DNA from: a virus
Lineage: Duplodnaviria; Heunggongvirae; Uroviricota; Caudoviricetes
Reading direction: 5' to 3' (one strand)
IMG/VR virus record: IMGVR_UViG_2671180892_000012
Coordinates: 1-25,466 of that record
DNA: 25,466 bases
In this document: positions 5,413 through 19,349 of the stretch, one piece after another
Position numbering within the stretch: the stretch's first letter is position 1
Layout of the letters: every line of letters begins with the position of its first letter
Program-made: the position numbers and the translations under genes
Notes under the pieces: generated by a model
Seen by the model: only the letters and a program-made list of their open reading frames with translations
Told to the model about the DNA's origin: nothing
The model's database searches: none

Positions 5413-6603
5413 TTAATTGCTGTTAACCGAGGTGACCAGATTTGCCAGGTATTTATCAGTAATACGCTGGCGCAGGGTCAGGTTTTCAAGAGGAGGCACC
5501 GGGGTATAGTCGTAGTCGATATACAGTTTTCCGGCCTTGAGGGTTTCCGCATCGTTGGATTCTTCACTGAACCAGCAGGTCGCATCCACGATATAGCCGT
5601 TTGTTTTCAGCTCTCGGAATTTGGCATTGATGCCGTCAACGATGTCGCGAATCAGCGTTGCGGTGATGGGCTTGTCCACCGCCCACATGTGCGCCTCAGC
5701 CATCGTGTCGGCCAGTACCTGCGCGGTGCGGGTGTAGTTTTCAAAGAGGAACAGCGGGTCATCAGAGCAGGTACGGTTACCCCAGAAGCGGAAACCGTCA
5801 CGGCGAATCAGTGTTGTGACGCCTGACTCGTTAAGCAGGTCAGCATCGGTGCCGGACTCCTGCAAATCCCAGAATACAGATGCGCTGATGCCGGTAACAC
5901 CGTTTACCCCGACGTTGGACAGCGTTTTATGCCAGCCCTGCTCATGGTCGATTCTGGCACGCAGACCCAGCGCACGGGCGGTGGCATACGCGGTAGCGGT
6001 GGTACTGGTGACCGTATCCCATGCGAGGAAATCCGGCCAGATGACCATCAGCTCACGCTGGCTGAAATTCTGACGGTAGGCTTTCACCTCGGAAATGGTT
6101 TTACAGCCCCATGCGCTGATATACCCGAAAGCGCGCAGCTTCTGACAGACTGATGCCAGTGCAACAGCCACCTCTTTGGTATCCAGCCCCGGCACACCGA
6201 GAATACGCGGTTTAACACCGGTTACCGACTCCGCCGCCAGCAGGGCTTTCAGTCCGGTGTACTGACCGTTTTCGTCGGTGGTTCCGATGATATTGGAAAC
6301 AGTCTGCGCGAGTTTCGTTTCTTCGTCTTCGCCGGTGCCGTCTTCCACACGCACGACAACGGTGACCGGTTTTGACTGGTCGGCGATAGCCTGCAACGAT
6401 GCCGCCAGCGTGCCTTTTTTACCGGCCTTTGCAATTGCGCTCTGCACATTGGTAATCAGCACCGGTTTATTGAGGGGGAAGGTTTCCGCATCCGCATCGC
6501 TGGCCGTGCAGACCATGCCAACAATGGCGGTGGATACGGTGGAAATGACGCGGGTGCCGTCGTTAATCTCCAGCACCTGCACGCCGTGATGATAGTCACT
6601 CAT
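5413..6603 (-). CDS. FI: Major tail sheath protein FI, 396 aa
   Basis: 396-aa ORF, ATG start, first gene of FI-FII-E-T-U-D operon; length equals P2 gpFI. Confidence 0.85.
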   Translation of the reverse strand: MSDYHHGVQVLEINDGTRVISTVSTAIVGMVCTASDADAETFPLNKPVLITNVQSAIAKAGKKGTLAASLQAIADQSKPVTVVVRVEDGTGEDEETKLAQTVSNIIGTTDENGQYTGLKALLAAESVTGVKPRILGVPGLDTKEVAVALASVCQKLRAFGYISAWGCKTISEVKAYRQNFSQRELMVIWPDFLAWDTVTSTTATAYATARALGLRARIDHEQGWHKTLSNVGVNGVTGISASVFWDLQESGTDADLLNESGVTTLIRRDGFRFWGNRTCSDDPLFLFENYTRTAQVLADTMAEAHMWAVDKPITATLIRDIVDGINAKFRELKTNGYIVDATCWFSEESNDAETLKAGKLYIDYDYTPVPPLENLTLRQRITDKYLANLVTSVNSN

Positions 6604-6824: not shown

Positions 6825-7409
6825 ATGGCACAGAATATGCCTAAAGAGCAGAGGGTTACACTCATTACGCTAGCTACTTTAACTGCAGTAGTCGCAGTCT
6901 TTTGGTTTTTGTCTATGGTGTTCGAGCATGAAATAAAATGTTTGGGCCCCTTAGTAGTTTCACTCTCAAGTGCAATACCAGTTTTTTCCTTGTGGTGGCC
7001 ATTTAAACCTAAGTACATATCCAAACGAATACGAAATACATTATCCGTTGATTTAAATATCACAAACCATGTTCTGTTTGGTGATGGAGATTACAAGTTT
7101 GACCCTTATTTTTCCACTGCGTCAAACAGAAGCCTTCATGTTATAACAAGATATTCTAATTATCTTTTGGGAGGAGCCCCCGCCTTAGAAATATATAACT
7201 TCCATGAGATTGGTGATGCAGAAGCATTCCCAATAAACAAACTTGATATAAATAACACGCCTATTGAGCAAGTGGTTATTTTGAAAAACATTCATAATAA
7301 ATACGCCTTAATAAAAATAAACTCAATTAATCAACAGCACCCTCATATTTTTGAGATCGAGTACATTCTAAACAGCGCAGGTTCTGGGAATTTTACGGAG
7401 TGCAGATAA
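6825..7409 (+). CDS. Hypothetical membrane protein (194 aa) at the P2 Z/fun cargo position, opposite strand to the late genes
   Basis: ATG with GAGG RBS; two N-terminal hydrophobic helices (VTLITLATLTAVVAVFWFLSMVF; LGPLVVSLSSAIPVFSLWWPF); visibly AT-rich compared with flanking tail genes; between G and FI, where P2 carries Z/fun. Confidence 0.6.
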   Translation: MAQNMPKEQRVTLITLATLTAVVAVFWFLSMVFEHEIKCLGPLVVSLSSAIPVFSLWWPFKPKYISKRIRNTLSVDLNITNHVLFGDGDYKFDPYFSTASNRSLHVITRYSNYLLGGAPALEIYNFHEIGDAEAFPINKLDINNTPIEQVVILKNIHNKYALIKINSINQQHPHIFEIEYILNSAGSGNFTECR

Positions 7410-11651: not shown

Positions 11652-11999
11652 TCAACTCACAGGGATGGTTAATGAAAGTGGCTGGCCGGTGTCGTTGTGC
11701 TGGCCGGTTAACGTGACCGTCATTCGCCCGTCAAAACTGCGCGCCGTGGTGACGGATGACAGGGTGACGCGGGGTTCCCATTTCAGCACCGCCATGTAAC
11801 AGGCGACCTTAATCTGCAACTCAAGCGCCGGGGTCTGCGGCTGGTCAAACATTGACGCCAGCAACGAGCCGTAATCACGACGCATCACCCGTGAGCCAAC
11901 CGGCGTGCGCAGGATATCGCCGATACTCTGGCTGATATGCTCAAGGTCAGTGACAGTCAGGCCATCACTGCGATTCATTCCGAGATAACGCGCAGTCAT
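11652..11999 (-). CDS. W: Baseplate protein W, 115 aa
   Basis: 115-aa ORF, ATG start; its start overlaps the V stop; length equals P2 gpW. Confidence 0.8.
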   Translation of the reverse strand: MTARYLGMNRSDGLTVTDLEHISQSIGDILRTPVGSRVMRRDYGSLLASMFDQPQTPALELQIKVACYMAVLKWEPRVTLSSVTTARSFDGRMTVTLTGQHNDTGQPLSLTIPVS

Positions 12000-12631
12000 A
12001 GAGGTCCCCCGGTTGTGCCGCCGCTGTCGCCGGGGTGTTTATGGGTATGCAGTACCTTACCGTTTGATGAGAGTTCACCGCCGGTGTGTTCAATGTTGCC
12101 GCGCATCGTCCCGCCCTTCTGCACTTCCAGCGTGCCGGTAATCAGCCTGTTGGTGCAGACCACCTCCGGTGTGTCCAGGGTAACGCGGGTTGATGCTTTC
12201 ACCGTGACCACCGGCACCGTGGCAGTAACAGAATCAGAAGCCGTCACGCTGGCCGTTTTAATTCCGCTTACCGTGAGTGCACTGGTTTCGGGTTCGTACT
12301 CAATCACCGCCCCGTCAGGGAAACGGATATGCAGGGCATCCGCCGACGCAGACGGCGCGGGGTTATCGCCGGAATAAATCCCCGGCAGAACGAACGCGGT
12401 GTCGAGTTCGCCGCCCACGGACAGAATCAGCACCTGTTCCCCCTCGGAAGGTGCCCACCACGTGCGCGAACGACCGGCGCGATGGGTCAGCCACTGAAGC
12501 CAGTCGGTGCACATGCCGCCAGTCTGCACACGGCAGCGACCGGCGTTAAGGTCGGTTTCGACGACAAGACCGGTGCGGATCATATTGCGCAGTGCGCGCG
12601 CGAGTTCCTGAATATTTGCGAGAGTGTTCAT
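11996..12631 (-). CDS. V: Baseplate hub/spike protein V, 211 aa
   Basis: ORF-track start at 12649 is TTG; the ATG at 12631 gives MNTLANIQELARALRN... and the 211-aa P2 gpV length. Confidence 0.8.
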   Translation of the reverse strand: MNTLANIQELARALRNMIRTGLVVETDLNAGRCRVQTGGMCTDWLQWLTHRAGRSRTWWAPSEGEQVLILSVGGELDTAFVLPGIYSGDNPAPSASADALHIRFPDGAVIEYEPETSALTVSGIKTASVTASDSVTATVPVVTVKASTRVTLDTPEVVCTNRLITGTLEVQKGGTMRGNIEHTGGELSSNGKVLHTHKHPGDSGGTTGGPL

Positions 12632-12714
12632 GCATGTGAGATTGCACAATATATAAAAGTTATGCTATCTGGATTCATTTGTAGAACCACCAGACAACAT
12701 TCAAGGAGAGCATA

Positions 12715-13500
12715 ATGGTCAGCTATAATGTGACTAATGTGTGGGAGCTAATCGTTTTGTATCTTTTGGTCTTTGCAGTATTAGCATTTTTTTGCTTTGG
12801 TAAAAGTAACCTTATGAGGCTTATTGCACATTATTTCAAATTTGGATATTCAGACAAAAAATTAAAAAGACTGGACCGCGAGTGGCGCGACATTCAACTA
12901 TTTAAAACACTTAACGGAATCAATGTATCAGGCATCGAAGATGTGAGAATGATACAGCAGGGGCTGATTGATGGAAAACTAAAAACATCGGATTTTTTCC
13001 TTACTCGCTTCTGGGGAGACATAACAGAACCGCTATGCATCACAAAAACAATGAGTGCAGTCCTGGCCGGAATTCTTTATATTATCTTCGCATGTTACAT
13101 ACACAATGAACAATCCGCTATAGTAAGGGATGCCATAGGTATACCATATAAAAATATGATGTACTATGTTTATAGTGACAAAGTTCTTTTATCCTTCAAA
13201 AATAAAACAGTTGAATTTAATAAAACTTATAGCCTTGCCGATTGCAAGAGTCTGCAAAACGTATTTATAAAAGACACACTTCCTGAGATCGCCTGCAATA
13301 AGCTCTTACAGCTAAACGAGGAGGACTCCGAATGGTTAAGTCAGGAGATTAAAGATAATAACAGCCACAGAAAAACATTATTAATACTATCCCTCGTCTA
13401 TTTCATTTCAGGTTTGCTTATATTCCTGTCATATACAAAATTCCTTTACGCCAATAAGAAGGTTTTAGAATACAAAGCATCAAATAAAAACCACTCATAA
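12715..13500 (+). CDS. Hypothetical polytopic membrane protein (261 aa) at the P2 orf30 cargo position
   Basis: ATG with AAGGAGAG RBS; three hydrophobic segments (LIVLYLLVFAVLAFFCF; AVLAGILYIIFACYI; LLILSLVYFISGLLIFLSY); AT-rich; opposite strand to flanking V and S; followed by a strong hairpin. Confidence 0.6.
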   Translation: MVSYNVTNVWELIVLYLLVFAVLAFFCFGKSNLMRLIAHYFKFGYSDKKLKRLDREWRDIQLFKTLNGINVSGIEDVRMIQQGLIDGKLKTSDFFLTRFWGDITEPLCITKTMSAVLAGILYIIFACYIHNEQSAIVRDAIGIPYKNMMYYVYSDKVLLSFKNKTVEFNKTYSLADCKSLQNVFIKDTLPEIACNKLLQLNEEDSEWLSQEIKDNNSHRKTLLILSLVYFISGLLIFLSYTKFLYANKKVLEYKASNKNHS

Positions 13501-13506
13501 ACCTCT

Positions 13507-13541
13507 AAACATTGAGCGACCAGCACGGCCGCTCAATGTTT
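13507..13541. terminator. Bidirectional rho-independent terminator candidate (12-bp stem aaacattgagcg / cgctcaatgttt)
   Basis: Perfect 12-bp inverted repeat with 11-nt loop, followed by TTTAATT on plus; lies between the convergent cargo gene and S. Confidence 0.5.
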
Positions 13542-13571
13542 AATTGCGCATCAGCCTCTGCCTGGATAAAA

Positions 13572-14024
13572 CTAACGCTCAAGGTGAGCCAGGATAATCT
13601 CTTCAATCATCTGCACATCCTCACCGGTAAAGCCGAGCAGAGGACGCGCCGGATAATCAATTTTCTTACCGTCTTTCCGGGTTTCTTCCGACAGACCGAA
13701 CTGATGCACACTGGCGATTTTCGGCGACTTCCCGCCGTAAAATTCCATTGATGCCTGTTCCGGGCTGGCGCGGATATGCAAAAAACGACTGGTGATAAGT
13801 TTCGCAAACATTTTTCGCTTAACACGACCGGTCTTTTTTCTGGCGATCTGCTGCTGGCGTGGCGCGTAGGGTGTGCCGTCCGGGGCTTTCTGTGCCATCA
13901 CCCGACGCTGCTGACTCTGACGCAGACGTTTCGCCAGTTCGGCACTCAGTCGCCGACGCCCTGACGGTGACAGCGATTCAATAAGTCCGGTCAGCCGGTC
14001 TTCAAAACGCTTAAACTCATTCAT
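13572..14024 (-). CDS. S: Tail completion protein S, 150 aa
   Basis: 150-aa ORF, ATG start, synteny R-S; length equals P2 gpS. Confidence 0.8.
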   Translation of the reverse strand: MNEFKRFEDRLTGLIESLSPSGRRRLSAELAKRLRQSQQRRVMAQKAPDGTPYAPRQQQIARKKTGRVKRKMFAKLITSRFLHIRASPEQASMEFYGGKSPKIASVHQFGLSEETRKDGKKIDYPARPLLGFTGEDVQMIEEIILAHLER

Positions 14025-15444: not shown

Positions 15445-15684
15445 TTAAGCCGGTACGCCGCCGGCGGTACGCCAGACGGTGACCAGTTTTTCCAGTGAAT
15501 GCTCACGCTGACCGTAACCGGCACCCGGCAGGGACGCCCAGATATTGCGACAGCGTGAAATGGCGCGCTCAATGCGTCCCGCCCGGATGTCATCCAGTGC
15601 ACCGCGTTCGCGGATCAACTGAATGGCGAGTCTGTCCTGTGACAACGGACTGAAATCCGGCAGGGCAAGCTGTTTGCGGTAAGG
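15445..15684 (-). pseudogene. K: 3' fragment of endolysin gene K (C-terminal ~80 codons only, no start codon)
   Basis: Open frame reads ...PYRKQLALPDFSPLSQDRLAIQLIRERGALDDIRAGRIERAISRCRNIWASLPGAGYGQREHSLEKLVTVWRTAGGVPA and is closed upstream by a stop at 15685-15687; the ORF-track M at 15645 is a TTG; the N-terminal catalytic part is absent. Confidence 0.6.
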
Positions 15685-16352
15685 TCATCAGACTGGAAAC
15701 CTCACCGGCAAAATATACCCGCCGTGGCGTGGAGGAGGATGTTTACTGGTGGGTGCCGTCCTTCAACGAGCCGACAGCCTTCACGCCCGGCTCCGTGTTT
15801 CACCTGCTGGAGCCGGATATCAATCAGGAGCTGTACGGCCTGCCGGAATATCTCAGCGCCCTTAATTCTGCCTGGCTGAATGAATCAGCCACACTGTTCC
15901 GCCGCAAGTATTACGAAAACGGCGCTCATGCCGGATACATCATGTACGTCACTGATGCCGTGCAGGATCGCAACGATATCGAAATGCTCCGCGAAAACAT
16001 GGTGAAGTCGAAAGGCCGCAACAACTTTAAAAACCTGTTTCTCTATGCACCACAGGGAAAAGCCGACGGCATTAAAATTATCCCGCTCAGTGAAGTGGCA
16101 ACGAAGGACGATTTTTTTAATATCAAAAAAGCCAGCGCCGCTGACCTGCTGGACGCGCACCGCATCCCCTTTCAGTTAATGGGCGGCAAGCCGGAGAACG
16201 TCGGGTCACTGGGCGATATTGAGAAAGTGGCAAAGGTCTTTGTCCGCAATGAGCTTATCCCGTTACAGGACAGGATTCGGGAAATAAACGGCTGGCTCGG
16301 TCAGGAGGTCATCCGCTTTAAAAACTACTCACTGGACACTGACAACGGCTGA
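15654..16352 (+). pseudogene. Q: 3' fragment of portal gene Q (about 230 C-terminal codons, no proper start)
   Basis: Frame is open from 15654; ORF-track start at 15729 is GTG; convergent with the late operon and ends about 170 nt before cos, as expected for the Q 3' end; identification as portal is from memory of P2 Q and synteny. Confidence 0.55.
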
Positions 16353-16678: not shown

Positions 16679-17680
16679 TCACCGAGCCATCTTGACTGCA
16701 TAATGAACACAAAAATAATGTTCTCCCGCATATCTAAAATGATGTTCAATTTTTCTCAAACCTATATATGGAGTCTCCACTTCTTTAATCCCAACTATCT
16801 CATGAGATTCTACACCAATATCTACCGGAGTAATCTCTTTTAGATAATCAATGTATCTCTCACACCAAGCATCAAATTTTGCGCCAGTATAATAAGCAAT
16901 TAAAAACAAGCGTTTAACATTAATAGGATTATAGTTACCAATTAGCTTTGAATAATGCTTTAATATGTTAGCTTGATCTAGAGATTTTAAAATCAATGCT
17001 TCTATTATAGCAAATAGATTTCCTTTATCTTCAATAACAAGATCTAATTCACCCGCACTTTTACCAGATTGAGACTCTCCCTCTCTAGTTTGATCTTTTA
17101 CCTCATAATTCTTAGCTAATAACATATCCCGTATAAAATCATTAAAATCATCTTCACCATATCCTTTAGCAGAGCGACGCCCCAATCTTTGAAGCACCCA
17201 AGATAAATCACTATCAAACTTTATAAAATTCAAAGGACGCTGCACTCGATCATCCTTTGATATTAAGCTTATACTATTAAGATTTAACAAATTAATCCTT
17301 TGCCTGATTAATTCATCAATATATCCAGAGTAACTATTATTATCTAACACTACGATATGCTTATCAAAAGTAGTGGCTGCATTAGCAACTGCACAAACAA
17401 CTATATCCTTAATATCCTCAGAACTATTCGGCACTGGTGTACGCAATATCTTGCCTGAAGGAGCTTTAGATAACTCAGACTCCCACTTCTTAAAAAACAA
17501 AAAAGAATCCTTGTTGTTTCCGCAAGACTTTAAATAACCTAAGCGAATTTTTCCATCAGCATCAAGAATCAACTCATTTTCACCATTAACAATGGTTTCA
17601 ATAAAAAAACCGCTAAACACTTTAACATCAGAAATATTAGCAGCAACAAATTCAGGACACAAACAAACAGCACAAAGCAT
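16679..17680 (-). CDS. Hypothetical 333-aa protein, second gene of the ATPase operon; candidate effector, family not recognised
   Basis: ATG 1 nt after the ATPase stop (translationally coupled); AT-rich; no transmembrane segments; C-terminal half has a pattern (FIRDMLLAKNYEV ... GELDLVIEDKGNLFAIIEALILK) resembling Mrr-like PD-(D/E)xK nuclease cores, unverified. Confidence 0.65.
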   Translation of the reverse strand: MLCAVCLCPEFVAANISDVKVFSGFFIETIVNGENELILDADGKIRLGYLKSCGNNKDSFLFFKKWESELSKAPSGKILRTPVPNSSEDIKDIVVCAVANAATTFDKHIVVLDNNSYSGYIDELIRQRINLLNLNSISLISKDDRVQRPLNFIKFDSDLSWVLQRLGRRSAKGYGEDDFNDFIRDMLLAKNYEVKDQTREGESQSGKSAGELDLVIEDKGNLFAIIEALILKSLDQANILKHYSKLIGNYNPINVKRLFLIAYYTGAKFDAWCERYIDYLKEITPVDIGVESHEIVGIKEVETPYIGLRKIEHHFRYAGEHYFCVHYAVKMAR

Positions 17681-17681
17681 A

Positions 17682-19349
17682 TCAATGAACTCCCTTTGAG
17701 TTCATTATTTTTTGTATCTTTAATTCCTGTATTCTAATTGTATCCTGAATCTCAACATCCATAAACTCATTTGGCCATGTGATATCTCCATCAGAATTCA
17801 CAGCCACTCTATTTAGTAAGGTTGATGTTCCCTCTTCATCTCGCTCAAGATGATAGATTGCCACATGGTCCTCAGTAAGTTCGCTTGATTCATCAACAAT
17901 TCTTAATCTAATCCGTCTAACTAATGCATCACTATGTGTTTCAATAATAAAAATTTTCTTTTCTTGCATAGATATTTTAATTAATGCGTCAGTTAACCAT
18001 GCCTGCATTTTAGGATGCAAATGTATTTCTGGTTGTTCTATTATTGTAATCGAGCCCTTTGGTGACAAATAAGCTTGAACCAAGACAGGCAACACTTGTG
18101 ATATTCCAAACCCTACATCTGTCAATTCTAAATTAACAGCATCTTGGTTTATAACTATCTTATGAATTATGTCATTAACTCTAACTATATCAACCGCTAA
18201 GTTAAATTCAGCGAGAAGAAGGTTTATGTTTTCTGTTATTTTTGTATTTTTCTTCAGAATCTCCGCCAACTCAGAGCCATCAGCAGAATTTAACTGAGCA
18301 TGATTGACTGTTTTATCTAATAAATAATAACGCTGAGGAAATGCCCTCAACGGGCTGACATGATTAACATTTTCGCCATCAAACATTTTTGAAAGCATTA
18401 ATACTCCCAGAGAAACAACATGTGACAAAAAGTTAACAACAGGGTTGTAGGAATTTCCAAAAAAAACATAAAAACCACGTCCTTCATTGACAGGGAATAG
18501 CCCCAAAGAATAAGGATTCATGATTTCTAAGATATCAGACTTACATCCTCTAAATACTTCTTGAGGGATAACATCCGACAATACAACGACATTATTCTTT
18601 TTGGGTAACAGTTCAACTATTCTTTCATCATTCTTATTTAGAAGAACAAATCTCGAAACCTTTACCACACCTTTATTTTTATCATATCTGAAGTCATAAC
18701 TTATTTTAGATGCAGACAATTTATTTCCTGAAATAGAAACAACTTTAGTTAGGCAATCTTTGATTCTCTTCAATGGGCATTCATATATAAATCTGCGTAA
18801 GTTTTCTGAGGTGGCCCGGCTAAACATAATATTATTGCCAGCATCTCTAAAAAGCATAATCAACTGGCACAATTTATCAGCAATAATATTTAATTTAGCC
18901 TCCTCAAACTCATCAAAATTAACAATGGCATTCAAAGATTCATTTATCAAATTATTGGCCTTCGCGACCAACTCATCATTATTTTTTACTGTCTGTATAG
19001 TGAATCGCATAATCATAGCAAATGATTCTAAAGTTTCTCTTCTCAGAGTATCAATGCCATTTTTAACTACGCTATTATCAGAAAAATCAAAGCTAAAGTT
19101 AAGTGTTTTGGAGTCATCTTTATTTTTTATAATATTTAATGCTTCCCCCATTCCCACTTTAGGTCCATTCAGCCGTAGAGCAGAGTCAGACAATGACATT
19201 GAATCAACTGTCTGAGAAAACATCAACAAAGAGTTAATTAGTGCACTTTTTCCACAACTATTTGCACCTAACAATATTGTCAATGGCTTTAAATCTAACT
19301 TAAAGCTTTCGTATGCTTTATAATTTTGTCCTGTAAAAGTTCTCAGCAT
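17682..19349 (-). CDS. P-loop ATPase of the OLD/ABC (AAA_15/AAA_21-like) type, 555 aa, no Toprim domain
   Basis: Walker A GANSCGKS at codons 28-35 (nt 19245-19268, checked by reverse complement); Walker B/D-loop ITIIEQPEIHLHP and H-loop IIETHS near residues 433-473; about 400-aa insert between them; AAGGAG RBS 8 nt before the ATG; AT-rich. Confidence 0.8.
   Translation of the reverse strand: MLRTFTGQNYKAYESFKLDLKPLTILLGANSCGKSALINSLLMFSQTVDSMSLSDSALRLNGPKVGMGEALNIIKNKDDSKTLNFSFDFSDNSVVKNGIDTLRRETLESFAMIMRFTIQTVKNNDELVAKANNLINESLNAIVNFDEFEEAKLNIIADKLCQLIMLFRDAGNNIMFSRATSENLRRFIYECPLKRIKDCLTKVVSISGNKLSASKISYDFRYDKNKGVVKVSRFVLLNKNDERIVELLPKKNNVVVLSDVIPQEVFRGCKSDILEIMNPYSLGLFPVNEGRGFYVFFGNSYNPVVNFLSHVVSLGVLMLSKMFDGENVNHVSPLRAFPQRYYLLDKTVNHAQLNSADGSELAEILKKNTKITENINLLLAEFNLAVDIVRVNDIIHKIVINQDAVNLELTDVGFGISQVLPVLVQAYLSPKGSITIIEQPEIHLHPKMQAWLTDALIKISMQEKKIFIIETHSDALVRRIRLRIVDESSELTEDHVAIYHLERDEEGTSTLLNRVAVNSDGDITWPNEFMDVEIQDTIRIQELKIQKIMNSKGVH

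Follow-up and report, generated by a model that had tools for sequence, protein, structure and literature searches.

The gene closest to the one described here is orf30 of bacteriophage P2, a reference phage in which it has stood as an annotated orphan for decades. P2's other AT-rich nonessential genes, old, tin and fun, are phage-exclusion genes; like orf30 they lie between conserved modules and are transcribed independently. The slots that they occupy, the old/tin and Z/fun hotspots, carry fast-swapping and mutually unrelated cargo (10.64898/2026.02.27.708500; 10.1101/2024.10.15.618418), with 99% of P2 pairs holding non-homologous systems (10.64898/2026.02.27.708500), and an older comparative study groups orf30 itself with the TO and Z regions, three regions that vary among P2-like phages and for which horizontal acquisition was proposed (PMC3091744). 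Among demonstrated exclusion proteins, the nearest parallel in function is SieA of phage P22, a prophage-encoded inner-membrane protein of 162-164 amino acids with three predicted transmembrane (TM) domains, which blocks DNA injection and is sufficient on its own. Here we analysed a viral stretch of 25,466 nucleotides (IMG/VR record IMGVR_UViG_2671180892_000012; the whole stretch is called the window), in which a plus-strand open reading frame (ORF) lies alone between the tail genes V and S, and we compared this locus with P2 and with more distant relatives.

A 1-kb query around the ORF matched phage P2 (AF063097) end to end with 94.3% nucleotide identity. The P2 feature under the match is annotated as 'orf30: Orf30, nonessential' (AAD03281.1, AF063097 9439-10224), and the P2 record places it between the activator-binding site of pV and the terminator of the O operon. 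At the protein level, BLASTP found 228 of 261 amino acids identical to P2 Orf30 (87%) without gaps (E 2e-173), the 33 substitutions being concentrated in the first and second TM segments (TM1 and TM2), and PHROG 2407, annotated as 'unknown function', matched over residues 1-261 of 261 (E 1.7e-140). The flanking spacers have the same lengths as in P2, 83 bp with 2 differences and 71 bp with 1 difference. The protein shares with the P2 Orf30 group (PHROG 2407) full-length similarity, location between V and S on the opposite strand and common flanking regulatory DNA. These results show that the ORF at 12715-13500 is orf30 of a P2-type prophage, the orthologue of P2 orf30, and that it forms a single-gene unit transcribed against the late tail operons on both sides. 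The earlier note on this DNA, made from the sequence alone, had described a cargo gene at the P2 orf30 position; the position was right, but the gene is not separate cargo, being orf30 itself with the same codon count and spacers. As it stands, this is a correct re-identification of a gene already known and annotated in the P2 reference genome. The locus is organized as follows:

11996..12631, minus strand: gene V (baseplate spike), which opens the V late operon and bounds the slot on the left; 96% amino acid identity to P2 gpV, RefSeq 'phage baseplate assembly protein V'.
12632..12714, no strand assigned: V-orf30 spacer of 83 bp, with the pV promoter and Ogr activator site on the minus strand and the orf30 ribosome-binding site (RBS) on the plus strand, after the P2 annotation.
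12673-12700, minus strand: Ogr activator site of pV, with TGTTGT at 12694-12699, transferred from the P2 annotation.
12703-12708, plus strand: orf30 RBS, AAGGAG, 6 nt before the ATG.
12715..13500, plus strand: orf30 coding sequence (CDS), ATG start, 261 amino acids plus stop, from the ORF map and the P2 Orf30 and PHROG 2407 matches.
13506..13542, no strand assigned: hairpin between the converging orf30 and S, probable terminator of orf30 and of the O operon, from folding and the P2 annotation.
13572..14024, minus strand: gene S (tail completion), which closes the O late operon and bounds the slot on the right; 98% amino acid identity to P2 gpS, and RefSeq.

The interval 12632-13571 is the exact gap between the V start codon, which ends at 12631, and the S stop codon at 13572. 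Both the ORF with its well-placed RBS and its insertion between two minus-strand tail operons had been recognized beforehand and are borne out here, as is the compositional bias: orf30 has a G+C (GC) content of 35.2%, against 49.0% for the window and 57-63% for neighbouring 400-nt windows, and its product contains 9.2% Lys and 6.5% Asn. Downstream of the stop codon, a bidirectional terminator with a 12-bp stem had been proposed. A strong hairpin is indeed present, with a stem of 13 bp plus 2 inner pairs (folding dG -22 and -27.9 kcal/mol, z -5.0 and -4.3), and the equivalent P2 hairpin is annotated as 'putative rho-independent terminator for O operon'. It lacks a proper U-tract on either strand, which is why a terminator scan that depends on T-runs did not call it, and an Rfam scan gave only a spurious sub-threshold miRNA match; its action in both directions is thus plausible from the sequence, but this part of the claim goes beyond what was observed. 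Both spacers and the hairpin are nearly invariant across nine orf30 alleles, more conserved than the ORF between them.

The window is 100% identical to DNA of E. coli N61, a bovine mastitis isolate from Japan in which a P2-like prophage lies between pflB and pflA, and the window protein is identical to RefSeq entry WP_061348696.1 of this strain. Within the window, what is left of lysozyme K is a C-terminal fragment (~15445-15681, minus strand), which abuts a fragment of the portal gene Q (~15678-16352, plus strand), and therefore the genes for holin Y, X, L, M, N, O and P have been deleted. The tail sheath gene is called frameshifted by PGAP, yet a 396-aa ORF is open at 5413-6603. The N61 element is a cryptic, crippled P2-like prophage in which orf30 is intact. 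The P2 and window copies accordingly agree in gene, slot, strand, length of 261 amino acids, 83-bp spacer with the pV site, and hairpin, and differ in that P2 Orf30 belongs to a viable phage while the window copy sits in a defective prophage.

To place this copy in its population, we searched 5426 complete E. coli genomes. Matches to orf30 DNA were found in 464 of them (~8.5%), all chromosomal; in 461 of the 464 the match extends over 80% or more of the gene, and all rows sampled carry the annotation of an intact CDS. A query of V plus S hit 2014 places in 1585 E. coli genomes. Among 48 sampled full-length rows, the span from V to S measured either 1155 bp (empty, n=35) or 2029 bp (with orf30, n=13) and no other length, so that about a quarter of the P2-like prophages of E. 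coli, from varied hosts, carry orf30 and about three quarters lack it. Wphi, fiAA91-ss and vB_EcoM-569R9 have an empty gap of 66 bp, whereas the filled gap is 940 bp, and the homology between filled and empty sites ends precisely at the ATG of V and the stop codon of S. In E. coli the V-S slot is therefore essentially two-state, empty or holding orf30. This differs from the old/tin and Z/fun slots with their swapping cargo, since the V-S slot holds either nothing or orf30 in E. coli and homologues of it in distant relatives. None of the papers on P2 defence hotspots that were consulted treats the V-S gap as one of them.

Other occupants of the gap are rare. In phage R18C it holds a co-oriented, soluble and unrelated ORF of 246 amino acids (PMC6823313). 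We considered this ORF16 (L038 681-1421) as a divergent Orf30 and rejected it on those same grounds, namely its orientation with the tail genes, its solubility and its unrelated sequence. In a distant P2-like contig (L020 2431-3756) the V-S gap contains a 441-aa PDC-S59 candidate defence protein (E 1.7e-196), and in another (L032 4507-6258) an ORF6N protein and HigB/HigA are inserted between the Orf30 homologue and S.

The earlier note had also proposed three transmembrane segments, and hydropathy analysis agrees with it: stretches exceeding a Kyte-Doolittle value of 1.6 over 19 residues lie at residues ~10-28, ~109-128 and ~220-240, and all three fall within helices of an AlphaFold2 model. 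That model was built from a 10-sequence alignment and reached a mean predicted local distance difference test score (pLDDT) of 80.9 and a predicted template modelling score (pTM) of 0.63; with five close sequences only, the pLDDT was 51 and the model unusable. It contains helices at residues 6-40, 48-67, 74-86, 91-94, 109-134, 174-179, 189-202 and 205-258, and strands at 141-145, 148-152, 156-160 and 168-173. The predicted segments, all on the plus strand, are the following:

12742..12798: TM1, residues ~10-28, from hydropathy and the AlphaFold2 helix 6-40; the short acidic N-terminus before it is predicted to be periplasmic.
12799..13038: loop 1, residues 29-108, a predicted cytoplasmic helical domain with AlphaFold2 helices 48-67, 74-86 and 91-94.
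13039..13098: TM2, residues ~109-128, from hydropathy and AlphaFold2.
13099..13371: loop 2, residues 129-219, predicted periplasmic, with four strands and two or three helices, from AlphaFold2 and charge.
13372..13434: the third segment (TM3), residues ~220-240, from hydropathy and AlphaFold2.
13435..13497: basic C-terminal tail, residues 241-261, predicted cytoplasmic; 5 K+R against 1 D+E in the window protein.

The orientation comes from charge statistics over 23 family members, expressed per 100 amino acids. The N-terminus has 0.5 K+R and 16.7 D+E (net -16.2), loop 1 has 16.3 and 9.8 (net +6.5), loop 2 has 14.0 and 14.6 (net -0.6), and the C-terminal tail has 19.2 and 9.0 (net +10.3). By the positive-inside rule, this bias puts the N-terminus and loop 2 in the periplasm and loop 1 and the tail in the cytoplasm. 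Orf30 is thus predicted to be a three-TM inner-membrane protein, N-out/C-in, with a cytoplasmic domain of ~80 amino acids and a beta-rich periplasmic domain of ~90 amino acids. Loop 1 is the most conserved region of the family (column conservation 0.49), its conserved residues being G29, D59, Q61, L62, G68, N70, V71, D76, G87, F94 and G101; N247 and K254 are conserved in the tail. Loop 2 carries a pair of cysteines, C194, which is invariant, and C177, conserved in 95% of members, which likely form a disulfide.

Comparison of this predicted fold with known ones gave few clues. A family-profile search of PDB sequences returned only noise, a structure search of BFVD gave nothing significant (best E 0.2), and Foldseek against the PDB likewise gave nothing significant, with generic helical matches and a best E of 0.07 for a claudin/TARP-like structure. 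The resemblance to claudin/TARP and SURF1 (Foldseek E at least 0.07, TM-score at most 0.2) is non-significant and one of layout only, a TM bundle with an extracytoplasmic sheet, and claudins have four TM helices and SURF1 two, against three in Orf30.

A different likeness, to class I holins, bears on what such a protein might do. These holins are N-out/C-in proteins with three TM helices and a basic tail. Orf30 resembles them in predicted topology and tail, but has 261 amino acids with structured loops of 80 and 91 residues where class I holins have ~70-110 amino acids and short loops; P2-like phages whose lysis module is present have a holin gene of their own. One explanation built on this layout is that Orf30 is an abortive-infection sensor-effector, which would stay dormant in the inner membrane until it senses perturbation of the envelope or cytoplasm by a phage and would then depolarise or permeabilise the membrane, killing the cell before the phage cycle ends. 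Domains on both sides of the membrane, with the cytoplasmic one most conserved, would suit such a protein, as would the holin-like topology, the single gene with no partner, an AT-rich composition like that of many toxic silenced immunity genes, and the retention of intact copies in decayed prophages. We nevertheless consider it unlikely: neither PADLOC nor Pfam gave a defence match, the 80-90-aa loops are unlike those of holins, there is no evidence of toxicity, and no enzymatic or pore motif could be recognized, the fold searches returning only generic helical matches.

Next, we asked whether the protein is maintained by selection, comparing nine alleles by the Nei-Gojobori method. All nine have the full 261 codons and zero indels. 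The ratio of nonsynonymous to synonymous substitution (dN/dS) was 0.47 for the whole gene (dS 0.165), against 0.16 for V, 0.11 for S and 0.05 for W. Divided by segment, it was 1.17 for the N-terminus plus TM1 (residues 1-28), 0.37 for the cytoplasmic loop, 0.63 for TM2, 0.31 for the periplasmic loop, 1.59 for TM3 and 0.22 for the C-terminal tail, so that the excess substitutions are concentrated in the membrane helices, which raise the overall value. The protein is maintained, with the helices constrained only to hydrophobicity.

These values bear directly on the explanation that orf30 has no current function and is a relic ORF drifting in an AT-rich spacer. An overall dN/dS that exceeds the values of V, S and W by a factor of three to nine, a dN/dS of at least 1 in two of the three TM segments and the failure to find a promoter would fit a relic, but the nine alleles without indels, the 461 of 464 matches that cover at least 80% of the gene, the dN/dS of 0.22-0.37 in the soluble domains and tail, and the conservation of the architecture, the Cys pair and ~25 positions down to 20% identity all contradict it and make it extremely improbable. 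Prevalence at full length, dN/dS and the architecture shared by distant homologues likewise show that orf30 is not a chance ORF.

The distant homologues were found only by sensitive searching. A word-indexed protein search returned only proteins at least 81% identical, and a scan of species-representative genomes returned no homologue, whereas an exhaustive HMMER search of 1.84 billion representatives gave 41 matches, among them ~20 full-length proteins of 249-271 amino acids with 19-33% identity. The relatives have three hydrophobic segments in common; G68, G87, C194 and I212 are invariant, and G29, Q61, D76, C177, N247 and K254 nearly so. Most homologues whose DNA could be retrieved occupy the orf30 slot, between V and S and divergent from V. 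The loci, with their handles, are these:

L018/L019: IMG/VR viral contigs, homologue in the orf30 slot, with 33% identity for the L018 allele.
L022: Sodalis sp. RH24, homologue in the orf30 slot.
L023-L025: Logan assemblies, homologue in the orf30 slot.
L028-L031: IMG/VR viral contigs, homologue in the orf30 slot.
L032/L033: IMG/VR viral contigs, homologue in the orf30 slot, with extra genes in L032.
L034: Yersinia frederiksenii, homologue in the orf30 slot.
L020/L021: exception, homologue beyond R.
L035: exception, contig of an Enterobacter metagenome-assembled genome with only a V-like fragment beyond the homologue.
L016, L036 and L037: exceptions, decayed remnants.

At the syntenic loci, identity to the window proteins is 65-82% for V and 74-82% for J but drops to 25-35% for the Orf30 homologue, whose GC content is 30-36% in every case, against 48-65% in the flanks. 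Since homologues this divergent sit in the same slot and are all equally AT-rich, low GC is a stable property of an old resident gene family and not a mark of recent import, and the composition, which the earlier note read as typical of horizontal acquisition, is here no evidence that the gene was acquired recently. We conclude from these comparisons that orf30 is an old resident of the P2 lineage, either changing in sequence far more quickly than the genes around it or passing between phages as alleles, and that the Orf30 sequences form an old, fast-diverging family kept in the same slot, back-to-back with the spike gene V, in P2-like prophages of several Enterobacterales.

Gene S, which adjoins the slot, has deeply split allele classes of its own: in L018, L022, L023 and L028-L034 it is 45-51% identical to the window S, and in the same loci V is 65-82% and R 59-79% identical. 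It is either unusually divergent or recombinant.

The family also touches a Pfam entry. The Sodalis homologue P0022, which lies in the V-S slot and matches the Orf30 profile with an E-value of 2.4e-11, scores 28.9 bits against DUF6216 (PF19723), above the gathering cut-off of 27.3, over model positions 10-265 of 270, and 8 further members of the 23 in the family give weaker full-length DUF6216 matches. The window protein itself has no Pfam match even at E = 1, DUF6216 included, so the link between Orf30 and DUF6216 appears to be a distant and purely transitive one; as a family of unknown function, DUF6216 gives no functional clue for Orf30.

In addition to being conserved in its slot, orf30 outlives the prophage around it. 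Intact copies were found in at least five independently decayed elements (the window, L014, L016, L036 and L037). In the window orf30 is intact though the lysis and head genes are deleted. In the Enterobacter locus L036 (3572-9218) an intact homologue accompanies an Ogr gene, a V-D fusion ORF, fragments of S and R, and a NACHT ATPase, and in the Leclercia locus L037 (1286-5750) an intact homologue has an integrase fragment next to it, together with Psu, Ogr/Delta and HNH genes, which is the context of a P4-like satellite and not of a P2 tail module.

Retention in cryptic prophages could also mean that orf30 is a lysogenic-conversion gene unrelated to phages, encoding an envelope protein that alters the physiology of the host, such as its tolerance of stress, the integrity of its envelope, its colonisation or its resistance to colicins or tailocins. 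Its presence in about a quarter of E. coli P2-like prophages from varied hosts, and the predicted periplasmic domain of a membrane protein, are compatible with such a role. The family is, however, tied almost exclusively to one P2-like slot across genera, which suggests a phage-related rather than a niche-specific function, and it has no similarity to any known envelope-modifying family; we regard this explanation as improbable.

We then examined how the gene could be expressed. In the P2 record the V transcript is annotated as starting at the V ATG. All 8 slot variants compared, the empty one among them, have the Ogr/Delta activator half-site GTTGTG at a distance of 61-68 nt upstream from this ATG (window 12632-12700; L003 2533-2598, the empty site of Wphi; L018, L022, L023, L028, L032 and L033). 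In the 66-bp empty gap of Wphi, the first G of GTTGTG belongs to the S stop codon. This constant distance in every variant means that pV is independent of orf30. The idea that the orf30 cassette introduced the pV promoter into the slot was rejected for the same reason, as GTTGTG is equally placed in the empty site and in all other variants.

The orf30 start codon lies 15 nt beyond the pV Ogr site, and any promoter of orf30 must therefore overlap pV on the opposite strand. Upstream of the ATG the best sigma-70 candidate is GTGAGA-19-TATGCT, with 8 of 12 positions matching. A 9/12 candidate, TATAAT at 12724-12729 with TTCAAG 18 bp upstream, was rejected as the orf30 promoter: it falls within the ORF, 3' of a start codon whose N-terminal TM helix the whole family conserves. 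This element (window 12700-12729) overlaps the orf30 start codon and would fire within the ORF; its -10 hexamer would be altered in other alleles where codon 4 is Asp and not Tyr. Such elements are frequent in AT-rich DNA, and this one is probably an intragenic promoter or a chance match.

The proximity to pV leads to a further explanation, in which Orf30 has an accessory role in the lytic cycle of its own phage, such as timing lysis, protecting progeny from re-adsorption to lysing or sister cells, or helping the tail or baseplate at the membrane. Strict synteny with V and S over deep divergence would fit this role, and the 15 nt between start codon and activator site couple its regulation physically to late transcription. 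P2-like phage progeny can lethally attack sister lysogens, a 'collateral attack' (PMC13622650), which gives a selective reason for a self-protective membrane factor. Nevertheless, the gene runs against the late operons and does not itself show late-promoter geometry, the P2 record lists it as nonessential, about three quarters of the P2-like prophages of E. coli do without it, viable phages like Wphi included, and it stays intact where the phage can no longer make particles. A lytic-cycle role is therefore, in our judgement, quite unlikely.

The autonomous opposite orientation, the nonessentiality in P2, the absence from about three quarters of the prophages, the conserved protein and its survival in decayed elements together support a function that would benefit the cell carrying the prophage rather than particle production. 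The lysogenic-conversion or superinfection-exclusion role suggested in the earlier note is the most sensible guess for such a gene. Among such functions we tentatively favour phage exclusion, because P2's other AT-rich nonessential genes exclude phages and because the other occupants of the slot are candidate defence or toxin genes. It is possible, though doubtful, that Orf30 is a prophage-made inner-membrane exclusion protein that acts alone and blocks DNA entry. In such a mechanism, Orf30 would be expressed from the prophage and would work by itself at the inner membrane against an incoming phage, interfering where that phage opens a channel and passes its DNA across the membrane. The periplasmic domain may meet the incoming injection machinery, while the conserved cytoplasmic domain may stabilise or oligomerise the protein. 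The orf30 promoter would overlap pV, so that the gene could be silenced once late transcription fires. Orf30 would then be functionally analogous to P22 SieA or HK97 gp15, and orf30 would join old, tin and fun as the fourth exclusion gene of P2.

The comparison with SieA illustrates both the appeal and the weakness of this proposal. Both proteins are encoded by a single gene and are predicted to have three TM segments. The SieA gene adjoins and converges with the ejection-protein gene 16, and orf30 likewise lies beside, and is directed against, genes of the DNA-delivery apparatus. SieA, however, is without the 80-90-aa soluble domains of Orf30 and has no detectable sequence relationship to it, and its activity has been demonstrated, whereas that of Orf30 is a proposal.

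Several observations weigh against exclusion by entry block. No defence model of PADLOC-DB 2.0 matched the protein (0 families at E <= 1), and Pfam and NCBIfam scans of the window protein gave nothing. Alignment of the family profile with P22 SieA by hhalign gave a probability of 0.3% and an E-value of 0.2, with only a TM helix aligned, and the searches of the PDB and BFVD revealed no homology to solved or viral predicted structures. The most conserved part of the family is cytoplasmic and not obviously needed by an entry blocker. Selection on the periplasmic domain within E. coli is purifying instead of diversifying (dN/dS 0.31), and thus there is no arms-race signal on the surface that would meet a phage; an arms race on this domain was rejected within E. 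coli for the same value and for the location of the excess substitutions in the TM helices. No plus-strand sigma-70 match of at least 9/12 was found upstream of the orf30 ATG, and with no credible promoter there, expression of orf30 in the lysogen is assumed rather than supported. In the 48 sampled rows the slot is two-state and not swapping, unlike the proven P2 defence hotspots. The virulent and hetero-immune derivatives P2 vir1 and P2 Hy dis form plaques on P2 lysogens, a point against exclusion of P2-type phages themselves, and to our knowledge the interference phenotypes known for P2 lysogens are all covered by old, tin and fun.

A wider form of the exclusion proposal, which leaves the mode of action undecided between entry block and abortive infection, is that Orf30 and its DUF6216-like relatives constitute an unrecognised family of single-gene, membrane-embedded phage-exclusion proteins, held in a fixed slot beside the spike gene across Enterobacterales, staying with its phage rather than swapping, kept by the host after the prophage decays and supplying P2's missing fourth exclusion gene. 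We consider this a serious possibility, though one still short of an even chance. If exclusion is true, Orf30 would represent a new membrane-protein defence family and an accessory gene linked to its phage over a long evolutionary distance, in contrast to the other hotspots of P2 with their 'guns for hire' turnover. The comparison with P2 orf30 and the homology and topology prediction that the earlier note had suggested have thus yielded an orthologue and a three-TM N-out model. Beyond identifying the ORF as orf30, the present analysis adds the filled/empty polymorphism and its frequency, the syntenic AT-rich family, the DUF6216 link, the survival in remnants and the topology model; the family alignment, predicted topology, Cys pair and filled/empty polymorphism make the question of function directly testable.

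The prophage of the window carries other AT-rich cargo. A 194-aa ORF (6825-7409, plus strand) occupies the Z/fun slot, with the tail-fibre assembly gene on one side and the sheath gene on the other; RefSeq lists its product as a hypothetical protein, and it has no Pfam or PADLOC match. The old/tin slot holds an AT-rich cassette of two genes (16679-19349, minus strand, ~33% GC). One encodes a 555-aa ABC/AAA_15 ATPase that matched the PADLOC models NsnB (E 2e-51), HEC-03B, PDC-M55A and AriA (E 3e-28), and the other a 333-aa partner with no Pfam or PADLOC match; judging from these matches, the cassette is probably a PARIS/Nsn-like defence pair.

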